This document shows, in pieces, positions 952 to 17,972 of a DNA stretch of 33,175 bases. The notes beneath the pieces are model-generated. The model did no database searches. It saw nothing but the letters and a program-made list of their open reading frames with translations, and was not told the DNA's origin. The stretch is taken from assembly GCA_964447725.1 (NCBI GenBank), contig CAYUUB010000002.1, positions 1 through 33,175 of the forward strand. The letters run 5' to 3'. The first letter of the stretch is position 1. Each line of letters begins with the position of its first letter. Position numbers and translations under genes: made by a program. The stretch is from an uncultured Oscillospiraceae bacterium. Its GTDB lineage: Bacteria > Bacillota > Clostridia > Christensenellales > CAG-138.

Positions 952-985
952 GGATTTCACCTCCTTATGGGCATACCATAACGTA

Positions 986-998: not shown

Positions 999-1199
999 CA
1001 AGCAAGGGGTTTTTCAGGTCGTTTCAAGGTTTTGGTGGTTTTATAGTGTAAATCTGCCGTTCAACCCGTTCGTGCCGGAAGCATCGACCATTCCGATGCT
1101 GCTTTGCGGGGGACAGTTGCCGAACTTTTAACGTTGACTTTACGCGTTTGTGACGGCACGGCGATATGATAAAACCGAAAAGATGAAAGGAGGGACTAC

Positions 1200-1886
1200 A
1201 TGAAATCAGCTTCACACCACGCAATGGGGCATCTGCTGCACCGGACGCTGGAGGAGGCGGGCATCCATCTGGACAAAGAAATGTTCGTTCTGGGAAACCT
1301 GCTGCCGGACTATTTGCCGGAGCTTATCCTTTCCCCGCACTTTACCGCAAAGTGCCAGCGGGAAATCAACGTGTTTGCCGGCGTTCTCGCCGCACAGCAT
1401 ATCGACCGCGCGAAAGAAATCCCTGCGGAATACGCACTTCGCCTCGGCATCCTGTGCCATTATATCACGGATTATTTCTGCTTTGCGCACTGCCGCGAAT
1501 TTGGAAAAACGCTGGCGAAACACGCGGTATACGAGCAGGAACTCGACGACTATTTCCGCAGCCATTACCATGCCGGCGAATGCCTGCTTGCCGAATATCC
1601 AAGCGTACAGTGCGCTTGCGCAAAGGACGTCGTGTCGGACATCTTTCAGACGAAGCGTCGCTATCAGTCGGCCGAGCGGGCGTTCAAAACGGACTTGCAG
1701 TTCGCGTTTACGACATGTCTGAACACAATCCGGCGGATCTTGGTTCTTTCGGAATCCGGCCAGCACGCGTTCAGTCCTGGTTTCCGCTTTGCGCCGTTCG
1801 CCGTGGAAAAGTATGCGTTTCAAAAGGACGTTTGCAAGCGCAGGATCGTTCCGCGCCGCGCCTGGTGCACCGGTTCGGTCGCCTAG
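1200..1886 (+). CDS. Zinc-dependent phospholipase C-like family protein (hypothetical)
   Basis: 228-aa ORF with AAAGGAGGG 7 nt upstream of the ATG. Histidine/aspartate motifs are spaced as in the Zn-dependent PLC fold (HHAMGHLLH near the N-terminus, GNLLPDY, CHYITDYFCFAH). The assignment is from motif memory only. The basic C-terminal tail (after about aa 190) looks less protein-like. Confidence 0.55.
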   Translation: MKSASHHAMGHLLHRTLEEAGIHLDKEMFVLGNLLPDYLPELILSPHFTAKCQREINVFAGVLAAQHIDRAKEIPAEYALRLGILCHYITDYFCFAHCREFGKTLAKHAVYEQELDDYFRSHYHAGECLLAEYPSVQCACAKDVVSDIFQTKRRYQSAERAFKTDLQFAFTTCLNTIRRILVLSESGQHAFSPGFRFAPFAVEKYAFQKDVCKRRIVPRRAWCTGSVA

Positions 1887-2039: not shown

Positions 2040-3212
2040 TTAAAGTTGAATTTCGCCCGCGCCGTCGCCTGCGTCGGACTGGTAAAACGAAGGCGCATAA
2101 CCCGTCCGTTTTTCATACTCCGCCGCGAGCCGCTTTTTAAACGCGGCAATTTTTGATTTTTCCACGATGCTGATGTTGCAGCCGCCGAACCCGCCGCCGG
2201 TCATGCGCGAACCGATGACGCCTTCGATGCCCGTCGCGATGTCGAACACCGCATCCAGTTCCGGCCCGGTCGCTTCGTAGTCGTCACGGATGGATACGTT
2301 CGCTTCGCACAACAGTTTGCCGAACGCAGCGATATCGCCCGCTTCGAGCGCTTTCAGCGAGGCGATCGTCCTTGCTTCTTCCGTTACGCAGTGCCGTGCG
2401 CGGCGGTAGAGCGTTTCGTTCGTGAAAAACTGCCGGAACGTCTCAAGTTCATCCGCTTTTATCGAGCAGAGATTTTGATAAGCTCCGCCGTTACGGTTGA
2501 TGACGGTCAGCGCCTGTTCGCACTCGCTCCGGCGTTGGTTATACTGCGAATCCGTCAGCTTATGCGGCGCGTTCGTGTTTGTGATGACAATCGTGTATTC
2601 GCCGAGTTCCAGCGGGACATATTGATAGTCCAACGTATTGCAGTCCAAAAAGAGCGCATGATCCTTTTTTGCCATGGCCGAAACGAACTGATCCATGACG
2701 CCGCAGTTCATTCCGACGTATTCGTTTTCCGCCTTCTGGCAAAGCACCGCGATTTCCGCCATGTCGGGTTCGGTCCGTCCGCCGAGCGTTGCCAGCGCAA
2801 CCGCGGTCGCCACCTCAATCGACGCGGACGAAGACAGCCCCGCGCCGAACGGAACCGTTCCGTGATAGAGCAGGTCGCAGCCCGGCACGGCGTAGCCCGC
2901 CTGCTGCAATACGGAAGCAACGCCGCACTGGTAGTTTCCCCAATGCAGCTGTTTATATTGCTCCAGCGCGCTCAAATCCGCTTCCACCCTGTCCGGCAGG
3001 TCTGTCGCGGCAAGACGCATCGTCTGCGTCCCGTTTGCGCGCGCAACAACGGTATTGTTCATGTCCAGCGCCGCGGGGAACACATGCCCGCCGTTATAAT
3101 CGATGTGCTCGCCGATAAGGTTGATACGTCCGGGCGCCTGAAACAGGCGAATGCCGTCCGTCGTTCCGCCGTAAAGCGTCATGAATTCAGAAACCAACTC
3201 TTGATTCGTCAT
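2040..3212 (-). CDS. galK: Galactokinase
   Basis: Galactokinase signature GRINLIGEHIDYNGGHVFP and GHMP-kinase motif PFGAGLSSSASIEVA are present. ORF track gives 2040..3233. I prefer the ATG at 3212 (MTNQELV...) because GGAG lies 6 nt upstream, but 3233 cannot be excluded. Confidence 0.95.
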   Translation of the reverse strand: MTNQELVSEFMTLYGGTTDGIRLFQAPGRINLIGEHIDYNGGHVFPAALDMNNTVVARANGTQTMRLAATDLPDRVEADLSALEQYKQLHWGNYQCGVASVLQQAGYAVPGCDLLYHGTVPFGAGLSSSASIEVATAVALATLGGRTEPDMAEIAVLCQKAENEYVGMNCGVMDQFVSAMAKKDHALFLDCNTLDYQYVPLELGEYTIVITNTNAPHKLTDSQYNQRRSECEQALTVINRNGGAYQNLCSIKADELETFRQFFTNETLYRRARHCVTEEARTIASLKALEAGDIAAFGKLLCEANVSIRDDYEATGPELDAVFDIATGIEGVIGSRMTGGGFGGCNISIVEKSKIAAFKKRLAAEYEKRTGYAPSFYQSDAGDGAGEIQL

Positions 3213-3373
3213 CTTTTTCTCCACAATCGTCATGATATTATTTCAGCGAGTTCAGCGGAAAGCACCGTTGAAAGCACAGCGCTTCCACCGGATGCAAAAC
3301 AGGGCATCCCCTTTCCCCGGCCGGACCGCAGCAAGAATATTTTATCACGGTTTTGCCGTCATAGGGAGGCGCT

Positions 3374-3574: not shown

Positions 3575-5074
3575 TCAGTCGCCTTCGCATGTGTTTCGAA
3601 TCATCTTTCCGTCTTTCTCAACATGGTAAAACGCTTCCCGATGCGACAGCTCGGTAAATTTCAGTATCTGGTATCCCTGTTTTTCACCGTTTCTATCTTC
3701 AATTTTGTAAAATTCCGCCCAGTTTCTACGGCGCGCATTCGCATCGTTGAACGAAGGAACAAGATAAGCGGTGGCGCTTGAGCCCTGTCTCCAGATCGCG
3801 GCATAAATCGAAGTATCGGCCTGCGCCTTTTTAAAAGCCGGCTTTCTGTCTTCCGTCGGGTCCAGCAGCGCGTACTCGAAGCCTGCTTTTTTTATCTTTT
3901 CCTGCCATAGATCGTTGGCGACGATATCCGACAACTGGTTGACAAGGTCCAGCGCGCTTTGGTAGTTTTCTTTCCTGATTCGCTCTTCTTTAAGTCGTTC
4001 CTCTTCTTGTTTTTTCTTAAGCTGCTCTTCTTTAAGCCGTTCCTCTTCACGTCGCTTTTTCTTAAGCTGCTCTTCGTTCGGCGGCTCGGGTTCAGAGCCT
4101 TTCGGCTTTCTGTTCGATTTTTCGTCCGTATCCCCTTTTGTTTGCAGCGGAATACGGTCCGGACGGACGGCGGTCCCGTTCCCGTTCGCGTTATCAAGGC
4201 GAATCAGCAAAATCGGGGACTCCTCCGGACTTTCAAAGCGCACTGTCGTTGTGAGATTTACTTCGGTCGGTGCCTTTGCGCGATCCGCTTCTTCGGGGAT
4301 TTGTTTCAGCTTTTCGCTCGCTTTCGCACCCGCTGTTCTATGCTCGAAAATAAGCCAAACGAAGCAGGCTATGAGCAGCGTTGCAAAAACGCATGCGACA
4401 ATCAGGACGATAAGCATCGGGGCGTCCAGCACCGGCTCCCTGTTCGCCAAAGCGGCTTCGTCCTCCGCGGTTTCCGTTACAGTGTCCTTTGCCTGCAGTT
4501 CCGCCGTTAGCAAATCGATCTTTGTCTGCAACGCTTCGGTCTTTCCTTCGAGCATGGCGACTTCTTCCACGCGGTCCGTGTCGGTTTGTATCAGCGCGTC
4601 GATAACGGCGCCGGAGTCGATCCAGCCGGTTTCTGCAAATGTTGAATCCGCGTCCTGATCGCCGGACGTTTCATTTTCTGATTCGTCCAGGGTAGCGCTA
4701 TCTGTTTCAACTGATTCGTCAGCATTTTCTATGCTTGTTTCCGGCTCGCCGGCGGTCCAAACGATTTTTACTTCACATTTGCCGGTCAAGCCGGCCTGCC
4801 CTTCCTCTGCATTTTGGTCCACCGCCGACCTCTGTAGAAACACGTGGGCAGTATTTTCAACGCCGTCTTCACCGCTTTGGTAAGAAACGTATTCTCCCGG
4901 TTCGCCGGGGGATAATCGTCCGATTTCTTCGCCGGAAGCATCGTAAACCGCCGTCGTCTCGCAAACGAAGATTTCGACGCCGTCCTCCGAGTCTTCCGCG
5001 GCATACGCCGTTTGGCAAAAGCCAAGCAGCAGCAGCGCGGCGATCAGCAGCGCGATTTTTCTGTGCATCTTCAT
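3575..5074 (-). CDS. Bitopic (type I) membrane protein: signal peptide, acidic ectodomain, one TM helix, K/E-rich repeat, C-terminal globular domain; function unknown
   Basis: 499-aa ORF whose ATG overlaps the upstream stop (ATGA at 5071-5074). Signal peptide MKMHRKIALLIAALLLLGFCQTAYA|AED. The D/E/T-rich region aa 26-215 includes a coiled-coil-like stretch VEEVAMLEGKTEALQTKIDLLTAELQAKD. TM helix PMLIVLIVACVFATLLIACFVWLIF spans aa 219-243 (nt 4346-4420). The repeat EEQLKKKRREEERLKEEQLKKKQEEERLKEERIRKE spans aa 334-367. The roughly 130-aa C-terminal domain has no motif I recognise. Confidence 0.8.
   Translation of the reverse strand: MKMHRKIALLIAALLLLGFCQTAYAAEDSEDGVEIFVCETTAVYDASGEEIGRLSPGEPGEYVSYQSGEDGVENTAHVFLQRSAVDQNAEEGQAGLTGKCEVKIVWTAGEPETSIENADESVETDSATLDESENETSGDQDADSTFAETGWIDSGAVIDALIQTDTDRVEEVAMLEGKTEALQTKIDLLTAELQAKDTVTETAEDEAALANREPVLDAPMLIVLIVACVFATLLIACFVWLIFEHRTAGAKASEKLKQIPEEADRAKAPTEVNLTTTVRFESPEESPILLIRLDNANGNGTAVRPDRIPLQTKGDTDEKSNRKPKGSEPEPPNEEQLKKKRREEERLKEEQLKKKQEEERLKEERIRKENYQSALDLVNQLSDIVANDLWQEKIKKAGFEYALLDPTEDRKPAFKKAQADTSIYAAIWRQGSSATAYLVPSFNDANARRRNWAEFYKIEDRNGEKQGYQILKFTELSHREAFYHVEKDGKMIRNTCEGD
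3974..4075 (-). repeat. Imperfect 42-45-nt in-frame tandem repeat encoding the K/E-rich segment
   Basis: On the plus strand, CTCTTCTTTAAG(T/C)CGTTCCTCTTC occurs at 3983-4006 and 4025-4048. TTTTTCTTAAGCTGCTCTTC occurs at 4011-4030 and 4056-4075. The repeat is coding (EEERLKEEQLKKK x2), not a CRISPR or intergenic repeat. Confidence 0.85.
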
Positions 5075-8000
5075 GTTTTTGCCCTCCCCCGGCTGCCTGC
5101 CGTTGTGCAGGCAAGGTAGTATTGGCTCAATGCATCGACCGCACCAATAAGAAACGCGTCTCCGTCGTCAATGTGACCTTTCAGTACTTCCCGATCGTAT
5201 TGATGCCTGCCCGGTTTGTCAAATATTCCGGCTGAGTATTCGCCTTGTTTGAATGTCCAGTCAAAACACTCGCTTGCGGCCGTTTTATAAGCTTCTAGCA
5301 GTTCATTGAATTCTTTTCGACCGGCTTCGACCACCTTTTCATGCGCCGCATTACGCGTTTTATTACCGGTGGCCGCCTCTGCTGCCGAATCGGTTCCCGC
5401 CGCCGTGCCGAAACGTACTTGCGAGGAGGTGGAGCGCTTGCCATCGCCAAATATCGCCGGCCTTCCTTTGAGCGAACCACTGGCGACTTCCAGCTTAGGG
5501 TCTTTTGAAAACTCGCATTCAAAATCCTCCGGAGCAATGGCTGCATGCATTCCCGCCAGGAACAGCCGGTAAACGAATTCCGTCTTGCTTTCTTCGTCGC
5601 GGTGGATCCAATGAATCATTTTTGAACCGTTGCCAGCAAGGATGACAGAAGCGCTGTCTTTTGAAATCTCTTTTTCGTCCCTTAACATAAGGCCTGCACA
5701 AAAGATGATCGACGCCAGATAAAATGCGACCCTTTTTTTCAGCTCCAGCAGCGCACCGGCTCCATTTTCGCCGGGGTTTTTCCCCGCGCAATATTTTGCG
5801 TAAGCCTCTCCGAACGTTTTTTCATTGTGAACCTGCGTGTCGATATTTTTGTCTTTCGGGATTTTCATGCCAAGCAAATCTTCGATACTGCTTTCGCCGT
5901 TTCCGTCCTGGCTTTTGCAAATATCATTGATAAATCCATCGACGTCGTAATACATTTCTTTGATGCTGTCTTCCGCATTATTAACAAGTATCTTAAGCTT
6001 GGCCGCATTGTTATCCCGCAGGCCTTCCAGCAAAATTTTCCGTGCGCCGAAGCGTATCGAACTCGAATAACAATGCGATATTCCATCGTTCACCGCGTCG
6101 ATAAAGATATCCGCGGAGCCGCCGCCGATATCGATTACGCAATACGTAACCTGTCTGGTCACTGCGCTGGCTGCATACCGGAAAGCCGCCTCGCTTTCGG
6201 TTATTTCAATTATGCTGCCCACCGTCTGGTCTGTATTGTCTTCTGCATTAATGCTGCCCATCGCCTGGTCTATATTGTCTTCTGCATTATCCGGCCGGTG
6301 TATTGCAAGGCCCGTGTTTTGGATTACCCTGTTCAGCGCAGCGCCCAGGGACGTGAAATAGCCATCCACAGCCTGCCTTTTAAACGACAGCGGGTAGGAC
6401 GCCGTCAACGACAGCTCGCTGCAATTGTTGCATTTCGCTTCCAGTGCGATCATGTACAACAGTTGCATCAGCATTGCTTCCACGCGCTTTTGGTTGTTGT
6501 CGCCGCTTTGGCACCACTTTAAATTCGGATATAATTTAGGCTGTGCAAAACTCTTTCGACGCCCCAAAAACGCCCGGTAAAATATCCAGCTGTCGAATAA
6601 CGGTTGCCGAGCAATATTCGTGGCGGCCGCATCCGCTAAAATCGACTGCAGCGGAACGCTTTTTGCGATTTCTTTTGCAAGTTCCTCTTTCGCAGGAATG
6701 TCCCTGTAACTCGGCAGGTCGCTCTCCCTGTCCGACAAGGTTTCCATAATTTCCTTTGCGGTAAGCGGCATTGCGGGAACAAAGTATTTCACAAAATACG
6801 GCGTATCCGTCTTGCTGTCAATCCTTGGATTGAGCAGCGGCATGCTCCAGAAATTGAGCCCGCTGATCAATGTTTCTTTCGTTTCCCCCCTGACTCTGCC
6901 AAACAATGTCGTTGAGGACGTGCCGAAATCCAGGGCCGCCTCGTAGATGCGCGGATTGTTTGCGGTCCCAATCAAAGCCGATTTTCTCGTTGTGACATAA
7001 CCCAGTAAAGCATTATTATAGTAAAGTTTGCAACGCTCCGGCATTTGCTTGAGCATGTAGTACGTCAGCTGCGTTTTCCCTCCATCTTGGTGATCTTTCC
7101 CCGGTTCTTCCTTTTTTGAGGCTTCGCTTGTTTTTTCAGCTGTCTTTTTATCTTCATGTTCCGGTTCTATTTGATATCCCTGCCGATTGATGATCTGCTC
7201 TTCATCTTCAGGCGTTAATCGATAATGGCTGCTTTCGACGCAGAACATGAAGTATTTCGACCATCCGTCGATCCGCTGTCTCGGCCAGATGCCCGCCGTG
7301 CAGAAATCGTACCATGTCGCAAACTCTATCGCAGGTTTTTCATATAGACGCGAGAAAACGATATTTCCGATTGTTACAGTCGCCTCGATTTTTGAAAGCT
7401 TAATATCCTCGCCGCACGGAGTAATTTTGACTTCGTATTTTGGTTCCAGTTCCGCGTTCTCGTCCCACAGCTTCCAGAACATCTCCGTAACCGGCATTGG
7501 TATGAAAAAGTGTACGTATTTTTCCTTTCTTTCGAGGGCCTTCAGGCACTCGTCTCCCAAACCGCCGGCGGCTTTATGGATGTCCGTAAGCCTGTCGTAA
7601 CGCGCTCCCTGCTCGATTATCGCGTAATGCACCGTATCGGAAAACAGCTTGAATGTCTTCGGCACCGGGACCCGCCAAATCTGAAGCTCTCCATTCTTGT
7701 GTCCCTTTACAACGTCGTCTATATTCGGGGTTGTCGCGGTCTCCAGTTTATATGCACTATTCAAAGCATAGGAATAGTCCTGGATCAACCGTTCTTTCAG
7801 CAAGCCGTTATGGGATGTTTTTTGGTCATAGGCGTCAAGCCATCGTTTCAGCACCAACGCATGGATTTGCCATATGGCGGGAATTTCCCGATCTTTTGCA
7901 ACCTTTATCATTCCCGGCGTATAGACGGGTTTCGCATCCTTTGCTGCCCCGAGATCGGCGGCCTCCACATTTTCGACAAGGGCGTGGACCTTCCCACCTT

Positions 8001-8538
8001 TGAGCCAGGGAATCTTGTCCGGATAAACTTTCTGGAGTTTTTCCCAGGCATCCTTTGTCGGGACGATATGCACCGTGGGCGACGACATGGCGATCGGATG
8101 TTGACCATCGACGTCTTCGATGTAATAGATATCCATGCTGTTCCATCTGTCCGCCTTCGGTCTGGTCTTGTACGCCGCGCTGATGTACGGGTTGACCGCC
8201 TCTTTCGTAAAGTCGATTGTTTCCCTACGGACTTTTACATCGTAGGCGTCGGCAAGCAGTAAAACGGCGAGCATGGCGCGCCATTCCCGGACGACGATTT
8301 CTTCATATTCTATGTAACTATTGTCCTGATCGGCGTTCGTAAGCAACATATCAAAGAGCTGATGCTGGCTCCAGATGTCCGGCACAGAGGCGATGCGCCT
8401 CAGATCATGCTGTTTGATTCTGTCCTTATCTTTCGGGTCGACGATGCGGATGGCCTTGCCGATCTCTTTTATTTCCTCTCTTTTCCCCGTCAGTTCGCTG
8501 CTGGTCGGATGAAACGGAAACCAATGATAATACTCCAT
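5071..8538 (-). CDS. Giant (1155 aa) protein: roughly 450-aa N-terminal module of unknown fold, K/E-rich linker, C-terminal actin/Hsp70-like (ASKHA) ATPase core
   Basis: The ORF starts 3 nt after the upstream stop, with GGGAGGGA inside the last codons of the upstream gene. Phosphate-1-like AALDFGTSSTT is at aa 534-544 (nt 6907-6939). Phosphate-2-like CVIDIGGGSADI is at aa 800-811 (nt 6106-6141). Adenosine-like VILAGNGSKM is at aa 965-974 (nt 5617-5646). Their order and spacing match Hsp70/MreB/ParM/FtsA-type ATPases. The linker EPEHEDKKTAEKTSEASKKEEPGKDHQDGGK lies at about aa 458-488. Confidence 0.85.
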   Translation of the reverse strand: MEYYHWFPFHPTSSELTGKREEIKEIGKAIRIVDPKDKDRIKQHDLRRIASVPDIWSQHQLFDMLLTNADQDNSYIEYEEIVVREWRAMLAVLLLADAYDVKVRRETIDFTKEAVNPYISAAYKTRPKADRWNSMDIYYIEDVDGQHPIAMSSPTVHIVPTKDAWEKLQKVYPDKIPWLKGGKVHALVENVEAADLGAAKDAKPVYTPGMIKVAKDREIPAIWQIHALVLKRWLDAYDQKTSHNGLLKERLIQDYSYALNSAYKLETATTPNIDDVVKGHKNGELQIWRVPVPKTFKLFSDTVHYAIIEQGARYDRLTDIHKAAGGLGDECLKALERKEKYVHFFIPMPVTEMFWKLWDENAELEPKYEVKITPCGEDIKLSKIEATVTIGNIVFSRLYEKPAIEFATWYDFCTAGIWPRQRIDGWSKYFMFCVESSHYRLTPEDEEQIINRQGYQIEPEHEDKKTAEKTSEASKKEEPGKDHQDGGKTQLTYYMLKQMPERCKLYYNNALLGYVTTRKSALIGTANNPRIYEAALDFGTSSTTLFGRVRGETKETLISGLNFWSMPLLNPRIDSKTDTPYFVKYFVPAMPLTAKEIMETLSDRESDLPSYRDIPAKEELAKEIAKSVPLQSILADAAATNIARQPLFDSWIFYRAFLGRRKSFAQPKLYPNLKWCQSGDNNQKRVEAMLMQLLYMIALEAKCNNCSELSLTASYPLSFKRQAVDGYFTSLGAALNRVIQNTGLAIHRPDNAEDNIDQAMGSINAEDNTDQTVGSIIEITESEAAFRYAASAVTRQVTYCVIDIGGGSADIFIDAVNDGISHCYSSSIRFGARKILLEGLRDNNAAKLKILVNNAEDSIKEMYYDVDGFINDICKSQDGNGESSIEDLLGMKIPKDKNIDTQVHNEKTFGEAYAKYCAGKNPGENGAGALLELKKRVAFYLASIIFCAGLMLRDEKEISKDSASVILAGNGSKMIHWIHRDEESKTEFVYRLFLAGMHAAIAPEDFECEFSKDPKLEVASGSLKGRPAIFGDGKRSTSSQVRFGTAAGTDSAAEAATGNKTRNAAHEKVVEAGRKEFNELLEAYKTAASECFDWTFKQGEYSAGIFDKPGRHQYDREVLKGHIDDGDAFLIGAVDALSQYYLACTTAGSRGRAKT
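6212..6289 (-). repeat. Two tandem 39-bp units (36/39 identical), in frame, inside the ATPase gene
   Basis: Plus strand: ATGCTGCCCACCGTCTGGTCTGTATTGTCTTCTGCATTA at 6212-6250 and ATGCTGCCCATCGCCTGGTCTATATTGTCTTCTGCATTA at 6251-6289. They encode NAEDNIDQAMGSI / NAEDNTDQTVGSI at aa 751-776, between the connect region and the phosphate-2 motif. Confidence 0.9.
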
Positions 8539-8541
8539 CTT

Positions 8542-10143
8542 TTATCCCTCCCTGTTCGTTTCAACCGAGTCTTTGGAAACGCAACACTCCATCAGCGATG
8601 AAACGAAGTAATTTGCCGGATTGTGCTCGCCGATCTTCATGGAATTCATGGAAGCCGTAATTTCCGCTCCGGGAATGCCACAAAGCGTAAATGCAGCCGT
8701 CCCGTCGCTCGCCTGCCGCGAAATCGATTTTTCTATCGGCATTCCGTCGTTTCGCCCGCTGCCCTCGATCTCCAGCAATTCGTGCATCCCATGGTGGTCG
8801 AGCTCTTCCAGCCAGCGGAACATACTCGACGCAAAGGCCTTTGGAACGGCTACCCCGCGCTGGGTCTCTTCGTATATTTTTTTGAGGTCATCCGTCTTCC
8901 CCCAAACGGCCCGAAACGCTTCCGGCCTGTACCGCCAGGAAAGCTTCTCCTGCGATGCGATCGATTGATAATACACATTCAGCATCAGGTAAAACCGCTC
9001 CAGCCGCAGGATATAGTCTTTGACGCCCGTCTTGCTTTTGGCCTGCCCATAAGCGCCGAAATAATCGAAACTCTTCAGTGGGAAATATCCGTTTGACGGA
9101 ACGGTCCCATCCGTGTCTGTTCTTGTTTTGAGCGGGACCGACACTTCGATGTTTTTCGGATAGTCTCCCGCAAAATAGCGGCAAACGCCGATCGCAGCCA
9201 TCAATTCGGCAGGCATGGACGGATTGTCCTGTCCTTCCTTGGCCTTGCGTTTGCCGTCCGTTTCGACTTTCTCCCAGACGGAATCCCCTTCCTTATCCGT
9301 TTTCTTCTTTTGCATCTCCTGGCAAAAATCGCCGACAAACTGCGTATATTCGACCCCGTTCAGCGCGTCGGACTCCTTATAATACTTGAGCGCCATCTTG
9401 CTGTTGATCGGGAACAGCGAGCTGTCAACCTCCGTATCGAGATCGATGTTGAAATAAGGCAGCATAAGCGTCAGCCCGATGTGTTCGGCGTAATGGGTCA
9501 GATCCCCGTCTTCTTCTTTTTTGCAGGCTTCCTGATACAACCTTGCAAGCGTCGGCGTTCCGCTTGCTCCCGTTCCGCCGAATACAGAGCCGGCAAACAT
9601 TACCCTCAGTTCGTCGTTTCTTCCAACGCCGCTGAAAATGCTGTGCCAGAAGCCGCTTTCATTTCCCCAGTCGTCATGGAAGTTCTTCGCCCAGAGCAAC
9701 GAGCCGATCCTCGGATTGCCCTTACACCCGCGCTGCAGTTCCATAATCCGATCGTTCGTGTCGTACAGCGCATGGAACGTAAGTTTTTCCTCTTCCTCGG
9801 ACGATCCGGGCGTAACGATCAAGTCGAGCGTGCTATTGTCTTTCGTCCCAACGGAAAATTCGGCGAACCTGTCGACCTTCTTTGCTTTCCAGTTTCTTTT
9901 GCGCAGGCCGTCGTCAACCGCAACCGACAAAAACGGCATGGCCGCGTTCAGGCTCTTTATCATTTCCTCAAGCTCGTCCTTGTCGCCGCCTTTTACGATA
10001 TCCAGATCGACCATCCGGATTTCCAGCCGGTAATCGTCTCCGCAAAGGTCCGTCAGCATGCCGGACGCCGCCAGCGCGACGACCGATTGTGCCACACGCA
10101 TGCCGGACCCGCCGATTGCAACCAATACAAACTTTTTTGCCAT
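8542..10143 (-). CDS. Divergent tubulin/FtsZ-superfamily GTPase (Tubulin_2 / FtsZ-like type) with long C-terminal extension
   Basis: 533-aa ORF with GGGAGG 6 nt upstream of the ATG. T1-like VAIGGSGMR is at aa 8-16 (nt 10096-10122). T3-like GCKGNPRIG is at aa 139-147 (nt 9703-9729; compare FtsZ GAGGNPEIG). The T4 signature FGGTGASGTP includes GGTGASG at aa 189-195 (nt 9559-9579; compare GGGTGSG). Codons were checked by hand against the plus strand. I recognise no motif after about aa 330. Confidence 0.85.
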   Translation of the reverse strand: MAKKFVLVAIGGSGMRVAQSVVALAASGMLTDLCGDDYRLEIRMVDLDIVKGGDKDELEEMIKSLNAAMPFLSVAVDDGLRKRNWKAKKVDRFAEFSVGTKDNSTLDLIVTPGSSEEEEKLTFHALYDTNDRIMELQRGCKGNPRIGSLLWAKNFHDDWGNESGFWHSIFSGVGRNDELRVMFAGSVFGGTGASGTPTLARLYQEACKKEEDGDLTHYAEHIGLTLMLPYFNIDLDTEVDSSLFPINSKMALKYYKESDALNGVEYTQFVGDFCQEMQKKKTDKEGDSVWEKVETDGKRKAKEGQDNPSMPAELMAAIGVCRYFAGDYPKNIEVSVPLKTRTDTDGTVPSNGYFPLKSFDYFGAYGQAKSKTGVKDYILRLERFYLMLNVYYQSIASQEKLSWRYRPEAFRAVWGKTDDLKKIYEETQRGVAVPKAFASSMFRWLEELDHHGMHELLEIEGSGRNDGMPIEKSISRQASDGTAAFTLCGIPGAEITASMNSMKIGEHNPANYFVSSLMECCVSKDSVETNREG

Positions 10144-10167
10144 ATCCTGCCTCCCTCGTTACTCCCG

Positions 10168-10719
10168 TCAGTTTTTGATCGTTTTCAGTTTATCGTCCCA
10201 TTTTGCCACGATCCTGCTCCGCAGCGGTACGTTCGTCGCCGGGACATAGTGCATGCACAAGATCCAAATAATCGCACCGCATATTGCCAGCATGAGGTAC
10301 GGCAATCCCGCTCTGAATATGATCCAAAGACTTTCCGGAATATAGTTTCCAATCAGATTTTCGGACACAATTCCATATCGTGCGCCGGCCAATGCGCCGA
10401 TTCCAGCGCAAATCAGCAAGAAATTGCTCCAATTTTGCAAGGAAAGCCGCCCGTGCAGTTTTCGACCTGTATCGCCTTTCTTTTCGTTGACAATAAAAAA
10501 GATCAGGTTGGCGGCAAGCAATGCCATAATGCCGGCAAAATGCGCCCAGTATAGCGAGTTCTGATATGCCTGTGCAACTCGCTGCGAAGCATCGTCCAGA
10601 TAAAAAGCCACCAACACGGGCGTCTTTATCAAAAGCTGCGGAACCAGCGCAAGCAGAAGAGCCGCCGCCACCATTACCGTTATTCGAATTCCAATCCTTT
10701 TTTTTCTTAACGTATCCAT
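10168..10719 (-). CDS. Small polytopic membrane protein (about 4 TM helices), function unknown
   Basis: ORF track 10168..10734 starts at a TTG. I prefer the ATG at 10719 (MDTLRKKRIG...), which has GGGAGG 6 nt upstream. Hydrophobic helices lie at about aa 13-31, 57-77, 97-118 and 130-155 of the shorter form, followed by a basic amphipathic C-terminal tail (RSRIVAKWDDKLKTIKN). Confidence 0.75.
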   Translation of the reverse strand: MDTLRKKRIGIRITVMVAAALLLALVPQLLIKTPVLVAFYLDDASQRVAQAYQNSLYWAHFAGIMALLAANLIFFIVNEKKGDTGRKLHGRLSLQNWSNFLLICAGIGALAGARYGIVSENLIGNYIPESLWIIFRAGLPYLMLAICGAIIWILCMHYVPATNVPLRSRIVAKWDDKLKTIKN

Positions 10720-10753
10720 TGCCAGCCTCCCCAAAATTTATCTCGCCTGTACT

Positions 10754-12556
10754 TTACTGTTGTTCGCCTGTGGATTCCGGATGTTTCAGCGAGAGCGCAT
10801 CCTCGCGGCTGAACGCCCAGCCGTTAAAGTCCTCGTCTTCCTTCCAGTTGCCGGACGGCACGTATATTGCCGGGATATCGCGCACGACGATTCCAAACAC
10901 GGTCGTCTGCACACACGCGTACGTTCCTTCCTCGATTGCGTCCAGGGCAATCTGCGTCTGTTTGTCGGCAATGCCGCTTGCAATCAGGCTCGACAAAAAC
11001 GGCGTCTTTGCGGTTGTCGCCGACGTAAACCGTGCGGACGTACCGCTTTCTTCGCGGATGTACTCTTTGGTAAACTCCTTTAGGTTCAAAGTCCATGCGC
11101 TTGGCCAGCTTGTCTGATAAAGCGCCGCAATCTCATCCCACTGCGGGGATATCCACGTTCGGACGTCCACGGAAAACAGCAGAGGCACGTCTTCCGGGAG
11201 CATATCGGTATTGAGCGAAAAGATAATATCGACGCTTCCGGTTCTCGTATTGATTTGCTTGCTTTCGCACCGTATGATCGATTGATCCGCTTCGACCCAT
11301 TCGGATGTTTTCGTCGCCCCGTCCTTTTCTTCGTAGTTCAGCATCGAGACAACGGGTTCAACGGAATAGTCGGCGGCGGCAAACTCGATTTCATCGGCCG
11401 CGGCCAGCAGACCGTGTTTGTAATAGGCGGCCTCGCCTCCGTTGGACGAATCGGTCAGCGTGTACGGAAGCGTACACTTCACTTCCACGTTGTTTTCGTT
11501 TTCGCCGCGCACATCGGTATATATCTTTAAAACGGGGACGCTTTCCAAAAGCTCGATATCCTCTTCGGACAAATTTGTCGATGCGGGATACAAAATCTCG
11601 TCGTCATCGTTTGGAAGACCGCGAACTAGGTATCCGATATCGTAGTCCGCCGCGTCATACGCCTGGATTCCGGTATGGAACGATATCGAAATATCGTCGT
11701 TTTCACGCTGCCGCACACCGTATTCGGAATAGTAGGCGGCATACACCGGGTTGCTCTCGTCCAGCATCCCGCTGTTTTCAAGGTCGGACAGGGCTTTCTC
11801 CATGCTTTTTAGCACGCACGCGTCGTTTCCCATAAACAGAATGTATATAGGGTGGCGAAAGATCTCGTTTTCGTCTTTGTCCGCAACCATATAGGCGCTG
11901 ATGCTTCTTGCTTTGCCCGTCAGCGAATTAATCGGCAGATTGTCAACGGTTCCTGAAAAATCGCCCAGCACGCCGATGATGCCGACCGTCGTATCGTCCG
12001 GTTCCAAAAACGTTTTCTGTATCGTTTCAGCCGTACGCAGGCAGATATCTTCGGCCGGCATCATCAAATCCGAGATAAAAATGCAGACCGATCCGGGATT
12101 TTCGGAATAAAAATCGGCGATCCCGTCGACAACGTCGGCAATGCTGTTGCTGTCCTCCCGAAAAAACTCTTTCGTATGCGCCGAAAGGAAAAAATCGTCG
12201 CTCGCAGCAGCGCCACGACGTGCATCCCCGGCAATATCGCCGGCGGTATAGCAACTGCGCGCGCTGTTCATGGAAGCGCTCATGACCGCGGAGAGTACGG
12301 CGCTGTACGTTGTGCAGTATTCCGAAACGAACCCCTTCATTCCCTGACCGTCGTCGATCACGATGCAATAGCTCGTATCGCCGGACGTTCCGGCTTCGGT
12401 TTCCACCGCGTGCGGCTTCAGTTTTTCCAGCGCTGAAAGCAGCTGCCGCGTCGGATTCATGATTCCAGCCGGTTCCTCAGGTTCTGCAGCTCCGCATGCC
12501 GTCAATCCAAGCAAAAGCAGCAGGCAGCACGCAACACACAACACTCGTTTTTTCAT
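10754..12556 (-). CDS. Secreted lipoprotein (600 aa) with N-terminal degenerate vWA-like domain; function unknown
   Basis: ORF track 10754..12577. The preferred start is the ATG at 12556 (MKKRVLCVACCLLLLLGLTAC|GAAEP), with AAAGGGG upstream. The lipobox LTAC has its Cys at residue 21. The strand-like motifs are YCIVIDDGQGM (aa 63-73, DxGxG in place of MIDAS DxSxS), SVCIFISDLMMP and TVGIIGVLGDF. Their spacing resembles vWA beta1, beta4 and beta5. The remainder is acidic and beta-rich with no recognised motifs. Confidence 0.8.
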   Translation of the reverse strand: MKKRVLCVACCLLLLLGLTACGAAEPEEPAGIMNPTRQLLSALEKLKPHAVETEAGTSGDTSYCIVIDDGQGMKGFVSEYCTTYSAVLSAVMSASMNSARSCYTAGDIAGDARRGAAASDDFFLSAHTKEFFREDSNSIADVVDGIADFYSENPGSVCIFISDLMMPAEDICLRTAETIQKTFLEPDDTTVGIIGVLGDFSGTVDNLPINSLTGKARSISAYMVADKDENEIFRHPIYILFMGNDACVLKSMEKALSDLENSGMLDESNPVYAAYYSEYGVRQRENDDISISFHTGIQAYDAADYDIGYLVRGLPNDDDEILYPASTNLSEEDIELLESVPVLKIYTDVRGENENNVEVKCTLPYTLTDSSNGGEAAYYKHGLLAAADEIEFAAADYSVEPVVSMLNYEEKDGATKTSEWVEADQSIIRCESKQINTRTGSVDIIFSLNTDMLPEDVPLLFSVDVRTWISPQWDEIAALYQTSWPSAWTLNLKEFTKEYIREESGTSARFTSATTAKTPFLSSLIASGIADKQTQIALDAIEEGTYACVQTTVFGIVVRDIPAIYVPSGNWKEDEDFNGWAFSREDALSLKHPESTGEQQ

Positions 12557-12667
12557 GTTTCCCCTTTCGTTCCGCAAAGCAGGCGAAATACCCGCCGTAT
12601 TGCCGGTATGGCCGTATGATCGATCGAATTTCAGGATATGTTTGGCGAAAAGTATTAAATTTTATTT

Positions 12668-13129: not shown

Positions 13130-13161
13130 ATATGCAATACATAAATTGGAGGCAGATTCCT

Positions 13162-14379
13162 ATGTCCGATATTAAAAAGATTGTTTTAGCATATTCGGGT
13201 GGGCTCGATACGTCTATCATCATCCCGTGGCTCAAGGAGAACTATCCCGGCTGCGAAATCGTCGCGGTCGCCGGGGACGTCGGCCAGGGAATCGACGAAC
13301 TGGACGGCCTGGAAGAAAAAGCGCTGAAGACCGGCGCTTCCAAACTCTATGTCGCGGACCTTACCGACGAATTCGCCGACGATTATATCGTCCCGACGAT
13401 GAAGGCCGGCGCCACCTACGAAGGGTATCTGCTCGGCACGTCGTTTGCGCGCCCCATCATCGCAAAGAAGCTTGTTGAGATCGCGCTCAAGGAAGGCGCG
13501 GACGCCATCGCACACGGCTGCACGGGCAAGGGCAACGACCAGGTGCGTTTCGAGCTGGCGGTCAAGCACTTTGCGCCGAGTATGAAGATCATCGCGCCCT
13601 GGAGGGAATGGACCATCCGCTCGCGCGACGAGGAGATCGACTATGCGGAAGCACACAACATTCCGCTCAAGATCAACCGCGAGACCAACTATTCCAAGGA
13701 TAAAAACCTCTGGCACCTTTCGCACGAGGGGCTCGACCTGGAGGACCCGGCGAACGAGCCGACGTATGAGAAACCCGGCTTCCTTGAAATGAGCGTCTCT
13801 CCGATGGACGCGCCGGACGAGCCGACGTACCTCACGATCGATTTCGAACAGGGTGTGCCCGTCAAGCTCGACGGCAAAGCCATGAGCGCCAAAGAGATCA
13901 TCCTCGCGCTGAACGCCGTCGGCGGCGCAAACGGCATCGGCCTGCTGGACATCGTGGAAAACCGGCTGGTCGGCATCAAGAGCCGCGGCGTTTACGAGAC
14001 GCCGGGCGGCACGATCCTCTACAAAGCGCACGATGCGCTCGAGACCATCACGCTCGACAAGACGACGCTGCACAAGAAGCAGGAACTTGCCATCACCTAT
14101 GCCGAGCTCGTCTACAACGGCCAGTGGTTCAGCCCGCTGCGGGAAGCGCTTGCAGCGTTCGTCGACAAAACGCAGGAAAACGTGACGGGCACGGTCAAGC
14201 TCAAGCTCTATAAGGGCAACGTCATCAAGGCCGGGATCGAAAGCCCCTACAGCCTGTATTCCGAAGCGATCGCCACGTTCGGCGAAAGCGACTATAATCA
14301 GAAGGACGCGGAAGGCTTCATCAACCTTTACGGTCTGCCGACACAGGTTCAGGCCATGATGAACGCAAAGAAAAAGTAA
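13162..14379 (+). CDS. argG: Argininosuccinate synthase
   Basis: [21 protein letters not shown]-binding motif. The ORF track starts at 13132, but the ATG at 13162 has GGAGG 8 nt upstream and matches the usual ArgG N-terminus. Confidence 0.97.
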
Positions 14380-14441
14380 CGGTTCGCCGGCTCGCTGCGG
14401 CGGGCCGGAACGGAAACCTGGAAAAAAAGGAAGACGAAGGA

Positions 14442-15821
14442 ATGGAAAAGCTCTGGGCAGGACGCACGGCGGGCGGAAACGCCGCTCTCGCGGATGAACT
14501 GAATCGGTCGATCGCGTTTGATTCGCGCATGTTTGAGCAGGACATCACCGGCTCCATGGCGCACGCGGCCATGCTTGGCGCGCGCGGAATCATCGCAAAA
14601 GAGAGCGCCGAACACATCATCGACGGCCTGCAGGGCATTCTCGACGACATCCGGGCGGGCAAGCTTGCCATCGACCCGAACGCCGAGGATATCCATTCCT
14701 TCGTGGAATTCGAACTCACGCGACGCATCGGCGACGACGGCAGGAAGCTGCATACCGCACGAAGCCGAAACGATCAGGTTGCGCTGGACCTAAAACTCTA
14801 TCTGCAGCAGCAGACGGACGAAGTAAAAGCGCTTGTCAAAGCGCTTTTGCATTCCATCGTAAGCGTAGCGCAGAAGCATACCGAAACGGTCATGCCGGGA
14901 TACACGCATTTACAGCGCGCGCAGCCCGTCTCGTTCGGACACTGGATCCTTGCGTACGCGTTCATGCTCAGCCGGGACGTCACGCGTCTGAAAAACGCGC
15001 AGGCCGGCATGTCGCTTTCCCCGCTCGGCGCCTGTGCGTTCGCGGGGACGACCTATCCGATCGACCGCGAAATGACCGCAAAGCAGCTTGGTTTTTCCGG
15101 CGCGACGCAGAACTCGGTCGATTCCGTTTCGGACCGCGATTTCTGCATTGAGCTGGCCGGCGCGCTGTCGATCCTTATGATGCACCTGTCCCGGTTCTCC
15201 GAGGAGATCGTCCTCTGGTCGAGCTGGGAGTTCCGGTTCGTCGAGCTTGCGGACGACTTTTCCACCGGCTCCTCGATCATGCCGCAGAAAAAAAACTCCG
15301 ACATGGCGGAGCTCGTGCGCGGCAAAACCGGACGGGTGTACGGCGACTTAACGACGCTTTTAACCATGATGAAGGGCCTTCCGCTGGCTTACAACAAGGA
15401 TTTGCAGGAGGACAAGGAGGCGATCTTCGACGCGTTCGACACCGTAAAGCTCTGTCTTTCCGTCTTTGCGCCGATGATCGAAACCATGACCGTCCATCCG
15501 GAAAACATGAAAAAAGCGGCCGCCGAGGGCTTCATCAACGCCACGGACTGCGCCGATTACCTCGTGAAAAAGGGCCTGCCGTTCCGTACGGCGTATAAGA
15601 TCGTCGGCCAGCTCGTCGCGGCCTGCATCCAGGAGCATCAGACGCTCGAAACGCTGCCGATTGCGGAGTACAAACAGTTTTCGGAACTGTTCGAGGACGA
15701 TATCTACACCGCGGTCGATCTGATTCGCTGCGCAAAGTCCCGGACGTCCCAGGGCGGAACGTCCCCCGAATCGGTCGAACAGCAGATTGCCTACCTGACG
15801 GGGTTTATAAACGATGTATAA
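14442..15821 (+). CDS. argH: Argininosuccinate lyase
   Basis: 459 aa with the fumarate-lyase signature GSSIMPQKKNSD and an N-terminal KLWAGR... typical of ArgH. Confidence 0.97.
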   Translation: MEKLWAGRTAGGNAALADELNRSIAFDSRMFEQDITGSMAHAAMLGARGIIAKESAEHIIDGLQGILDDIRAGKLAIDPNAEDIHSFVEFELTRRIGDDGRKLHTARSRNDQVALDLKLYLQQQTDEVKALVKALLHSIVSVAQKHTETVMPGYTHLQRAQPVSFGHWILAYAFMLSRDVTRLKNAQAGMSLSPLGACAFAGTTYPIDREMTAKQLGFSGATQNSVDSVSDRDFCIELAGALSILMMHLSRFSEEIVLWSSWEFRFVELADDFSTGSSIMPQKKNSDMAELVRGKTGRVYGDLTTLLTMMKGLPLAYNKDLQEDKEAIFDAFDTVKLCLSVFAPMIETMTVHPENMKKAAAEGFINATDCADYLVKKGLPFRTAYKIVGQLVAACIQEHQTLETLPIAEYKQFSELFEDDIYTAVDLIRCAKSRTSQGGTSPESVEQQIAYLTGFINDV

Positions 15822-16764
15822 TGTTTTTATCGACGGAAAAGAGGGCACGACCGGTCTAAGGATCTTCGACCGGCTTTCGGACAGAACCGATATCGAGCTG
15901 ATAACGCTCCCCGAGGCAAGGCGCAAGGACGCAAAGAGCCGCGCCGTCGCATTGAACAACTGCGATATCGCGATCCTCTGCCTGCCGGACGCCGCCGCAA
16001 GGGAAGCCGTCTCCCTGATCGAAAACGGACACGTCCGCGTCATCGACGCTTCCACCGCGCACAGGACGGCGCCCGGCTGGGTATACGGTTTCCCCGAATT
16101 GCAGGCCAACGGCTTCCGGAACGTCCAGTCGGCCACGCGCGTCTCCGTTCCCGGATGCCACGCGAGCGGTTTCCTCGCGCTGATTGCGCCGCTTGTGCAA
16201 AACGGCATCCTGAAAAAAGACGCGCTGATCTCCTGCACGTCCCTGACCGGGTACAGCGGCGGCGGACGCAGGATGATCGCCCACTATGAAGCCGACTACC
16301 GGGACGTCCAGTTGAAAGCACCGCGGTTGTACGCGCTCGGGCAGGCGCACAAGCATCTGCCGGAAATGCAGCATTACAGCGATCTGGACACGGCTCCGGC
16401 GTTTCTGCCGATCGTCGCGGACTACCTCTGCGGCATGCTGACGATAATCCCGGTGTTTTCCGCCCAGCTGACGCCGGGAAAGACCGCCGGCGATATAAAA
16501 AGCGTTTATCAGGCGCTCTACGGCGGCCCGCTGATGCAATACCGGGAGCAGATGGACGAAAACGGCTATCTCTCCGGCGGGCGGCTTTCCGGCCTTGACG
16601 GCATGGACGTCAGCGTATCAGGGAACGACGAACGCATCACGCTGCTGGCCCGCTTTGACAATCTCGGTAAAGGCGCGTCCGGCGCGGCAATCGAGTGTTT
16701 GAATATCATGATCGGAGCGAACCCCTACGAAGGGCTCAATCTTGGAAAGGAATCGGAACTTTGA
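15814..16764 (+). CDS. argC: N-acetyl-gamma-glutamyl-phosphate reductase (short form)
   Basis: 316 aa with GKEGTTGLRI nucleotide-binding N-terminus and the catalytic-Cys motif VSVPGCHASG. It overlaps the argH stop by 8 nt. Confidence 0.94.
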   Translation: MYNVFIDGKEGTTGLRIFDRLSDRTDIELITLPEARRKDAKSRAVALNNCDIAILCLPDAAAREAVSLIENGHVRVIDASTAHRTAPGWVYGFPELQANGFRNVQSATRVSVPGCHASGFLALIAPLVQNGILKKDALISCTSLTGYSGGGRRMIAHYEADYRDVQLKAPRLYALGQAHKHLPEMQHYSDLDTAPAFLPIVADYLCGMLTIIPVFSAQLTPGKTAGDIKSVYQALYGGPLMQYREQMDENGYLSGGRLSGLDGMDVSVSGNDERITLLARFDNLGKGASGAAIECLNIMIGANPYEGLNLGKESEL

Positions 16765-17972
16765 AACAGATAGAAGGCGGCGTATGCGCCGCAGCCGGCT
16801 TTACCGCCGCGGGCGTATATTGCGGCATCCGGAAAAATAAAACCAAAAAAGACCTCGCGCTGATTGCAAGCGAAAAACGCGCGGCCTGCGCCTGCGTCTA
16901 TACGCAAAACCTCGTAAAAGGCGCGCCAATCGCCGTTACGAAGCGGAACGTCGCCGACGGATACGCCAGCGCGATCATCTGCAACAGCGGCAACGCCAAC
17001 ACCTGCAACGCAAACGGCGTTGAAATCGCGGAAACGATGTGCGATTTGCTCGGCAAAGCGCTCGGCATTCCGGCTTTCGACGTGGTCGTCGCGTCCACCG
17101 GAGTCATCGGAAAACCGCTCAGTATCGAACCGATCGCTGGCGGTATCCCGTCGCTTATTGAAAGCCTTGGCGACGACAGCGACGGCGCGGCACGCGCCAT
17201 CATGACCACGGACGTAAAGAAAAAGGAAATCGCGGTCGAATTTTCAGTCGGCGGGACAACCTGCAAAATCGGCGGCATCGCCAAGGGCAGCGGCATGATT
17301 CAGCCGAATATGGCGACCATGCTCGGTTTTATCACGACCGACGCCGCAATCAACCCAGCCATGCTGCAAAAAGCGCTCAGTTCCGACGTCCCGGAGAGTT
17401 TCAACATGGTCAGCATCGACGGCGACACCTCGACCAACGATATGGTGACCATCCTCGCAAACGGCATGGCAGGCAACGAAGAAATCGCCGAGGCGGGCGC
17501 GGACTTCGATTCGTTCTGCGCCGCGCTCGGCATGGTCACGCAGTATCTGAGCCGTGCCATCGCGGGCGACGGCGAAGGCGCAAGCAAGCTGCTCATATGC
17601 GCCGTTTCCGGAGCGGCCGGCAAGGGCGACGCAAAGAAGCTGGCAAAGAGCGTCATCAACTCCCCGCTGGTCAAGTGCGCCATGTTCGGCGCGGACGCAA
17701 ACTGGGGCCGCGTCCTCTGCGCGCTCGGTTACGCGGGCGTCGCCGTGGATGTGAACAAGGTCGGCGTCCGTTTTTCGTCGGCGGCAGGCGAAATCGAAGT
17801 CTGCAAAAACGGCATGGGCGTGGACTTTTCGGAGGAACTGGCGAAGGCCGTGCTTTCGGAGAGCGAAATCACCATCGCCGTCACGCTTGGCGACGGGGAT
17901 GCGTCGGCCACCGCGTTCGGCTGCGACCTGACCTATGATTACGTCAAGATCAACGGAGACTACCGGACATGA
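16761..17972 (+). CDS. argJ: Bifunctional glutamate N-acetyltransferase / amino-acid acetyltransferase
   Basis: Autoproteolysis motif PNMATMLGFITTDA. ORF track starts at 16695. I prefer the TTG at 16761 (LKQIEGGVCAAAGF...), which overlaps the argC stop (TTGA) and has GGAAAGG 10 nt upstream. Confidence 0.92.
   Translation: MKQIEGGVCAAAGFTAAGVYCGIRKNKTKKDLALIASEKRAACACVYTQNLVKGAPIAVTKRNVADGYASAIICNSGNANTCNANGVEIAETMCDLLGKALGIPAFDVVVASTGVIGKPLSIEPIAGGIPSLIESLGDDSDGAARAIMTTDVKKKEIAVEFSVGGTTCKIGGIAKGSGMIQPNMATMLGFITTDAAINPAMLQKALSSDVPESFNMVSIDGDTSTNDMVTILANGMAGNEEIAEAGADFDSFCAALGMVTQYLSRAIAGDGEGASKLLICAVSGAAGKGDAKKLAKSVINSPLVKCAMFGADANWGRVLCALGYAGVAVDVNKVGVRFSSAAGEIEVCKNGMGVDFSEELAKAVLSESEITIAVTLGDGDASATAFGCDLTYDYVKINGDYRT

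Follow-up and report, generated by a model that had tools for sequence, protein, structure and literature searches.

A compact tubulin/FtsZ-superfamily protein encoded with a giant actin-fold ATPase and membrane proteins in a conserved bacterial gene cassette

We analysed a stretch of 33,175 nucleotides (nt) from an uncultured Oscillospiraceae bacterium (contig CAYUUB010000002.1 of assembly GCA_964447725.1), here called the window, in which an earlier note made from the sequence alone had described one gene as coding for a highly divergent tubulin/FtsZ-superfamily GTPase. The 533-amino-acid (aa) product belongs to the FtsZl1/Tubulin_2 lineage, and its gene lies in a five-gene cassette together with genes for a lipoprotein, two membrane proteins and a giant protein with an actin-fold ATPase domain. 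On balance we think it likely that this protein binds GTP as a member of the superfamily and serves, together with the actin-fold ATPase, as a membrane-tethered assembly or switch subunit of an envelope-spanning complex rather than as a canonical treadmilling filament. The lineage is known, although functionally uncharacterised; what is new here is the short form and its set of partners.

The nucleotide-binding loops are legible in the protein (Table 1), and their conservation was followed in an alignment, A1, of 85 homologues with identity down to about 20%, to which the residue conservation given below for this protein refers. In T1, G11-G12-S-G14 follows strand E3-10 and all three glycines are invariant. 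In T4, S186, F188, G189, G190, G192 and A193 are invariant and T191, G195 and P197 are conserved in at least 96%; against the GGGTG[ST]G signature the loop reads F188-G-G-T-G-A-S-G195, with an invariant phenylalanine in place of the first glycine and its other positions invariant or conserved in at least 97%. As these residues are invariant across the 85 homologues, the T1, T3 and T4 motifs are not chance resemblances. The earlier note had picked out these three loops, and they do lie in the order it gave, VAIGGSGMR at residues 8-16 and GCKGNPRIG at 139-147 exactly where it placed them. FGGTGASGTP is also present, but occupies residues 188-197; the range it had been given, 186-197, reads SVFGGTGASGTP and adds S-V. 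The codons had been checked on the plus strand, whereas the gene reads on the minus strand, with a GGGAGG ribosome-binding site 6 nt 5' of its start.

Two loops beyond these three can also be read. V45-D46-x-D48 (D46 98%, D48 100%) would be T2, judging from FtsZ topology, and P229-Y230-F231 would be T5, whose FtsZ counterpart is KPFxFEG. In both the model described below and the alignment, T3 (GxxxNPxxG) and T5 (PF) stand in canonical order on the expected secondary-structure elements. Y255, G271 and Q305 are further invariant residues, and E313, W414 and W444 are conserved in more than 90%. The stretch from T1 to T3 is about 75 aa longer than that of FtsZ, close to the insert of about 80 aa noted earlier; its description as acidic holds only mildly, as residues 47-125 have 16 D/E against 12 K/R, much like the whole protein (81 against 65).

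Structure prediction leads to the same superfamily. The AlphaFold2 model built from A1 is confident (predicted local distance difference test score, pLDDT, 89.2; predicted template modelling score, pTM, 0.93), and its elements run S1-T1-H1-S2-T2-H2 ... T3-H3-S4-T4-H4-S5-T5-H5-S6, in the order known from the nucleotide-binding domain of tubulin and FtsZ, apart from additional helices that separate H2 from T3. Searched against the PDB with Foldseek, it retrieved tubulin, CetZ, FtsZ or BtubAB structures as 49 of the top 50 matches, nearly all with a probability of 0.98-1.00 and M. tuberculosis FtsZ and gamma-tubulin among them. The one exception, a Rossmann fold outside the tubulins, was the ketoacyl reductase 4cql_F, a short-chain dehydrogenase/reductase, at rank 27 with a probability of 0.75. 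The best match in a library of viral structures was a phage tubulin-like protein.

Profile comparisons place the protein within the family. A homology search of 5.8 billion proteins returned 129 homologues. About 57 of them are close (30-58% identity, without a Pfam domain) and come from Christensenellaceae, Clostridia and Eubacteriales metagenome-assembled genomes, while most of those in the tail, at E values of 1e-19 to 1e-5, carry the Pfam domain Tubulin_2 (PF13809). With phmmer, the 533-aa protein is tied to PF13809-carrying proteins at E 1e-19 to 1e-10, and hhalign aligned its close clade with a distant PF13809-bearing clade over residues 5-522 (Prob 100, E 8e-62). In A1, Pfam recognises PF13809 in 61 of the 85 relatives and Tubulin/FtsZ (PF00091), at E<=0.01 and at best 8e-6, in 27; the Pfam scan found no PF00091 match in the 533-aa protein itself. 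At the level of sequence comparison, these results show by transitivity, through the PF13809-bearing relatives, that the protein is a member of the family. Together with the Foldseek matches, they bear out the superfamily assignment made in the earlier note.

The family is large and widely scattered. Searched against 1.84 billion proteins, the A1 profile found 2,738 representatives (50% identity), 1,600 of them at E<=1e-30. Nearly all of the 150 matches listed are 480-560 aa long, and this uniform length makes the family a coherent short form. A motif scan of species-representative genomes found the short-form protein in at least 592 genomes, from Clostridia, Negativicutes, Cyanobacteria, Bacteroidota, Acidobacteriota, Poribacteria, Ignavibacteria and Alphaproteobacteria. 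No phage copies of the short-form family were found.

The part of the protein that follows the nucleotide-binding domain differs from that of canonical tubulins. After S6 comes a hairpin specific to the clade, where two thirds of the relatives have a gap, and then a conserved element, Q305-x-N307-P ... E313 (Q305 invariant, N307 82%, E313 91%). The only acidic residues conserved in at least 70% of the homologues are D46, D48 and E313. Past E313 no D or E reaches that level and no T7 motif (NxDxx[DE]) was found, in agreement with the earlier note, which could see none by eye. An attempt to locate T7 from a diverse FtsZ profile, by homology search with E. coli FtsZ, returned enterobacterial FtsZ only, at 98-99% identity. 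Residues 374-520 are entirely helical, and no Pfam match to FtsZ_C or Tubulin_C was found in the protein or its relatives. With no conserved acid beyond E313 and a helical C-terminal part, both T7 and the FtsZ_C/Tubulin_C domain are absent; in the model, a family-specific helical domain stands in place of the canonical beta-sheet activation domain. What had been called a non-canonical remainder is therefore just that, although its last 200 aa or so do not, as had been thought, match nothing: the helical domain is common to the whole subfamily and lies within the region aligned by hhalign.

This domain had been suggested as an adaptor to the ATPase. In a subgroup of Selenomonadales/Quinella loci (L016-L034) the tubulin-like gene codes for about 461 aa and keeps the helical C-terminal domain, while the giant actin-like gene is absent downstream and shorter unrelated open reading frames (ORFs) lie 3' of the tubulin-like gene. 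That the domain is retained without the ATPase gene speaks against its being simply an adaptor to the giant ATPase, so this one comparison does not support the suggestion.

The giant partner, the 1155-aa product of gene 4, gave a model of moderate confidence (pLDDT 65). It nevertheless drew 220 PDB matches at E<=1e-3 in Foldseek, which fall in the C-terminal half of the protein, and the top 50 were all Hsp70 nucleotide-binding domains, MreB or BeeR. A cross-phylum profile of the giant family matched MreB (8e-9), BeeR (8e-6), FtsA (8e-5) and Hsp70 (3e-3), and Pfam recognised MreB_Mbl in 21 of 44 members and FtsA in 15 of the 44. These comparisons show that the protein carries a C-terminal ATPase domain of the actin/Hsp70 fold (ASKHA). 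Across 61 giant sequences the phosphate-1 motif D537-F-G-T540, E781, the phosphate-2 motif D803-I-G-G-G-S-A-D810 (family pattern DxGGG[ST]xD, 803-810) and the adenosine motif G969-N-G971 are invariant, and the ATPase is for that reason probably active.

The N-terminal 500 aa or so of the giant are also conserved, and their fold was not recognised. The most conserved residues outside the ATPase domain lie in residues 1-100 (S51 and P53 invariant, W56 81%, W86 86% in the 61 sequences), where AlphaFold pLDDT is below 50; this N-terminus may bind a partner and become folded only once the complex has formed. Elsewhere in the giant, an in-frame 39-nt x2 tandem repeat (window 6212-6289) duplicates 13 aa, NAEDNxDQxxGSI, in a low-confidence loop.

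The association of these genes is conserved. The start of gene 4 and that of gene 5 lie so close to the preceding stops (junctions of 3 and -4 nt) as to suggest translational coupling. The same five genes are found in related Clostridia with entirely different flanks, and the same gene order recurs in Cyanobacteria, Bacteroidota, Acidobacteriota, Poribacteria, Alphaproteobacteria and Negativicutes. We surveyed the neighbourhoods of 79 species-representative loci, defining a giant ORF as one of at least 950 aa. Such an ORF lies directly 3' of the tubulin-like gene at 53 of 64 evaluable loci, and a hidden Markov model recognises 50 of these as members of the giant family. A small ORF with several transmembrane (TM) helices lies directly 5' at 66 of 77 loci, and lipoprotein homologues were found, across phyla, at 27 of 67.

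The lipoprotein family shares a conserved Cys, D-x-[ST]-x-S-M-x-G-[FY], [ST]-D-L, RPxYxL and a glycine-rich strand; its vWA-like motif is degenerate in the window, where it reads DDGQGM. The 499-aa product of gene 5 has a signal peptide, an acidic ectodomain, a TM helix, a charged coiled coil and a cytoplasmic C-terminal domain, and in hhalign this last domain (366-499) is homologous to what the fifth gene encodes in other phyla (Prob 85, E 6e-6). The charged coiled-coil segment is encoded by an in-frame 42-nt x2.2 tandem repeat (window 3982-4075). No Walker A motif or P-loop was found in any of the five cassette proteins, and an NCBIfam scan of all five gave nothing. Related cassettes in Poribacteria, Bacteroidota, Acidobacteriota and Negativicutes have a sixth gene, whose product joins a MotA/ExbB-type channel to a long coiled coil and matches models of ZorA from Zorya; neither the window's cassette nor its Clostridia clade has this gene.

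The cassette appears to be horizontally mobile. Its GC content (3575-12577) is 0.516 against 0.593 on the arginine-biosynthesis side (13132-33175), and GC at third codon positions is 0.56-0.67 in the cassette genes against 0.77-0.79 in argG and argH, so that it looks like a horizontally acquired island. In the window the tubulin-like gene apparently has a chromosomal setting, between arg and gal genes, and the flanking genes are those of ordinary metabolism and regulation. Elsewhere, the cassette occurs on cyanobacterial plasmids, only five of which were matched, and in RefSeq its partners on these plasmids are annotated almost throughout as 'hypothetical protein'. Complete cassettes were seen on the mobilizable plasmids NZ_CP016476.1 (L089) of Picosynechococcus sp. 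PCC 7003 and NC_014503.1 (L090) of Gloeothece verrucosa PCC 7822. An origin in plasmid partition or in phage was considered and set aside, with no phage matches and only these five plasmids; at the locus there is no TubR-type adaptor or centromere context, and the partners are membrane proteins. No Rfam family reached threshold anywhere in the window, and a promoter and terminator scan of it was uninformative.

Table 1. Features of the window and of related loci. Positions are those of the window, except for the sixth-gene copies, which are given in the coordinates of their own loci; aa numbers are those of the encoded protein.
Feature	Position	Strand	Remarks
Tubulin/FtsZ-superfamily gene (gene 3; short-form Tubulin_2/FtsZl1 lineage)	8542..10143	-	533 aa, ATG start; third of five co-directional, tightly spaced genes
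T1 loop VAIGGSGMR, aa 8-16	10096..10122	-	After strand S1
T2-like loop MVDLD, aa 44-48	10000..10014	-	After strand S2 (E38-46 in model)
T3 loop GCKGNPRIG, aa 139-147	9703..9729	-	G139 and G147 invariant, P144 96%
T4 signature SVFGGTGASGTP, aa 186-197	9553..9588	-	Follows strand E178-186
T5-like loop MLPYFNI, aa 227-233	9445..9465	-	Follows strand E222-227; P229 and Y230 invariant, F231 96%
Conserved Q305-x-N307-P ... E313 loop and helix 311-325	9169..9237	-	Proposed T6/H7 (base-contacting) element
All-helical C-terminal domain, aa 374-520	8584..9024	-	DSSP helices only; W414 91%, W444 96%
Gene 1, lipoprotein, 600-607 aa	10754..12577	-	Likely start M8 at 12556; signal peptide, lipobox LTAC
Gene 2, 188-aa protein with 4 predicted TM helices	10168..10734	-	By hydropathy; immediately 5' of tubulin-like gene
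Gene 4, giant protein, 1155 aa	5071..8538	-	Start 3 nt past tubulin-like stop
Gene 5, bitopic coiled-coil membrane protein, 499 aa	3575..5074	-	Start overlaps gene-4 stop by 4 nt
MerR-family regulator	217-1005	-	Flank
Zinc phospholipase C	1200-1886	+	Flank
Galactokinase	2040-3233	-	Flank
argG, argH, argC, argJ	13132-17972	+	Flank
Sixth-gene copies	L026:13520-15928, L029:13822-15537, L038:13541-15679, L045:14049-15866, L088:14016-15929		

These results suggest how the parts may work together. The tubulin-like subunit keeps the nucleotide-binding half of the fold, with strands S1-S6, loops T1-T5 and the Q-x-N-P...E element at the presumed start of H7. GTP binding would control its association with itself or with its partners at the inner face of the membrane, where the membrane partners would tether it. 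It would work together with the actin-fold ATPase much as FtsZ does with FtsA, and the membrane proteins would connect this cytoplasmic assembly to the lipoprotein outside. Without T7, canonical head-to-tail contact is probably not what sets off GTP hydrolysis; the protein may be a slow GTP switch, or may be activated through another surface or by another partner.

Several observations weigh against this interpretation. The Foldseek scores to the tubulins are weak (E 3e-4 to 3e-3, TM-score 0.2-0.35, root-mean-square deviation 8-15 A, about 280 aligned columns), and the match of the 533-aa protein itself to PF13809 covers only residues 127-219 and reaches 13.2 bits (E 0.055), below the cut-off of 27. 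When the family was compared with E. coli FtsZ by hhalign, and a hidden Markov model of its N-terminal domain with FtsZ and beta-tubulin, T1 and T4 alone aligned, at about 0 bits and without significance; T4 is the one segment for which the alignment with both is direct. Run against PDB sequences, the 85-homologue profile matched no tubulin and gave MCM4 noise only. With direct comparison to the canonical proteins failing in this way, the description as highly divergent was accurate. Helix 311-325 is taken as H7, with E313 as a possible guanine contact, because of its spacing relative to T5, and not from superposition. Among the partners, the 4-TM protein is conserved in position and topology only (outside the Clostridia clade similarity was not detectable, hhalign Prob 18). 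Neither Pfam, with 8 and then 32 homologues, nor a PDB profile search found VWA in the lipoprotein family, which we therefore leave as vWA-like, unconfirmed. The Selenomonadales subgroup carries the tubulin-like gene without the giant ATPase, so the pairing is not obligatory. Finally, GTP binding, physical complex formation, membrane tethering and non-canonical hydrolysis are inferred.

The lineage has been described before. Makarova and Koonin (2010, PMC2875224), who established FtsZl1, observed that it goes together with vWA and membrane proteins, predicted membrane-associated complexes for it and suggested membrane remodelling as its role. They too found neither T6-H7 nor a canonical C-terminal domain, and the absence of T7 and of that domain here matches their account of FtsZl1. 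A 2011 review gave the function of FtsZl1/Tubulin_2 as unknown and thought that filaments are perhaps not formed, and a 2023 phylogeny set the Tubulin_2 proteins aside as a divergent outgroup; we found no experimental study of these proteins in the literature. The 533-aa protein and FtsZl1/PF13809 are alike in a divergent nucleotide-binding domain whose T1 and T4 are separated by inserts, in T6-H7/T7 and a canonical C-terminal domain that cannot be recognised, in an alpha-helical C-terminal part and in operons rich in membrane-associated proteins, FtsZl1 having a vWA-type protein upstream. They differ in size, as most FtsZl1 proteins have an extended coiled coil and those in the part of Additional file 5 of PMC2875224 drawn on here are 763-1,208 aa long, against 533 aa without a coiled coil in the window. 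The families associated with FtsZl1 (A1-A2, B1-B9) do not include the actin-fold ATPase of about 1,100 aa, and the TxKD GTPase, protein kinase and OmpA genes of FtsZl1 operons are not in the window's cassette. Where FtsZl1 adjoins a vWA gene (COG2304), the lipoprotein here has the motif pattern only and no VWA profile match.

The complex could serve envelope or membrane remodelling or a conflict response triggered at the surface, and we considered both. In the latter case the cassette would be an anti-phage or anti-invader system in which the lipoprotein or the membrane proteins sense the invader and a multimer of the tubulin-like and actin-like NTPases sets a threshold, with damage to the membrane or an arrest of growth as the outcome. 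Being a reading of the biological role, it does not conflict with the molecular description given above; we regard it as unlikely, while giving it real weight. Kaur et al. (2020, PMC7159879) described GTPase-centric conflict systems that include tubulin-domain proteins together with extracellular vWA proteins in one theme and Hsp70 proteins in another, and proposed NTP-dependent, cytoskeleton-like multimeric assemblies for them. Their GAP1-N2 systems resemble the cassette in having a tubulin-domain protein with a helical or coiled-coil C-terminus, membrane-proximal components and an extracellular protein, of vWA type there, with an Hsp70-fold ATPase in the sister systems. However, the GAP1-N2 systems are defined by one or two TRAFAC GTPases, which carry zinc ribbons, by GAP1 and by FNIII-repeat proteins, none of which is in the window's cassette. 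The tubulin and Hsp70 themes are non-overlapping there, while both folds are encoded in one operon here, and the ATPase here is nearer to MreB and FtsA than to DnaK. Beyond the study of Kaur et al. and that of Makarova and Koonin, literature searches gave no description of a cassette that joins a tubulin-like with an Hsp70-/actin-like protein. A conflict role would fit the patchy distribution, the foreign composition, the differing flanks and the cyanobacterial plasmids, as well as one locus that lies beside DNA methylase, FRG and SNase genes. It would also fit the sixth gene that related cassettes in several phyla add, which resembles ZorA in joining a MotA/ExbB channel to a long coiled-coil tail; but the ZorA matches are mostly low-complexity coiled coil, in part a matter of composition, and ZorB, ZorC and ZorD were not found. 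None of the window's five cassette proteins matches PADLOC at a convincing E value, the only PADLOC matches among cassette proteins being those to coiled-coil/MotA in the sixth gene of other phyla. No clear defence-island signal was found among 130 flanking ORFs from about 40 loci, where PADLOC matches were scattered (mad8 4, mad3 3, IscS-like DndA/SspA 2), and the window's own flanks are arginine-biosynthesis and galactokinase genes. Nor does the cassette contain a recognisable effector (nuclease, protease or pore-former), a TRAFAC GTPase or a P-loop.

A canonical cytomotive filament of the FtsZ, TubZ or PhuZ type, with head-to-tail polymerisation that activates the GTPase and a role in cell division or DNA segregation, seems very improbable. 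The superfamily is the same, a phage tubulin heads the matches to viral structures, some copies are plasmid-borne, and the actin-like partner recalls FtsZ-FtsA, in which the actin-fold protein is the membrane tether and which likewise has adjoining genes for tubulin- and actin-superfamily NTPases and loops T1-T5 in the tubulin-like protein. Here, however, that protein has no T7, no conserved acids past E313, no FtsZ_C/Tubulin_C-type activation domain and no recognisable C-terminal FtsA-binding peptide, and its actin-fold partner is three times larger, with the conserved N-terminal half of about 500 aa. The cassette is accessory, horizontally spread and outside the dcw cluster, and its sporadic distribution means that it is not part of a housekeeping divisome. 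TubZ and PhuZ are also divergent tubulin-superfamily proteins of bacteria and phages, but they keep T7, polymerise and are partnered with TubR/tubC or phage-nucleus functions, while the short-form family shows no phage copies or TubR-like/centromere context and has membrane proteins and a lipoprotein as its constant partners. Nor does the family profile retrieve any FtsZ or tubulin among its 2,738 matches. Least probable of all is that the protein is a Rossmann-like nucleotide-binding enzyme outside the tubulins, with glycine-rich loops that have come to resemble T1 and T4 through convergence. The dehydrogenase at rank 27, the low TM-scores to tubulins and the lack of significance in direct sequence comparison with FtsZ and tubulin would allow this, but the tubulin-family structures that fill nearly all of the top 50, T1-T5 in canonical order on canonical secondary-structure elements and the 27 relatives that match PF00091 all speak for a tubulin fold, and no dehydrogenase or other enzyme family was found in Pfam and NCBIfam scans of the protein.

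It is possible, although we put this forward more tentatively than the membrane-tethered assembly or switch, that an undescribed envelope-spanning NTPase machine, present in hundreds of species from at least seven phyla, has the tubulin-like protein and the giant ATPase at its core. In many lineages this machine would be coupled to the MotA/ExbB-type ion channel with its long coiled-coil tail. Its tubulin fold, without T7 and activation domain, would serve as a switch operated by GTP or would use a new polymer interface. What happens at the surface lipoprotein would be relayed to the assembly in the cytoplasm, in the service of envelope remodelling or of defence of a new kind.

Within the tubulin superfamily, FtsZl1/Tubulin_2 proteins rank with the most divergent, and the locus described here defines a compact form of about 500 aa, without a coiled coil, for which the model is confident and the partners are sharply conserved. 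The model and the partners make a long-standing question directly testable, whether a tubulin fold can work without T7 and the activation domain. Tractable carriers of the cassette include the Picosynechococcus plasmids, whose hosts can be cultured, Brevundimonas and Bacteroides. If the interpretation is right, an operon in which tubulin-like and actin-like NTPases are constantly paired alongside envelope proteins would represent a cytoskeletal or signalling module of a kind new to bacteria.

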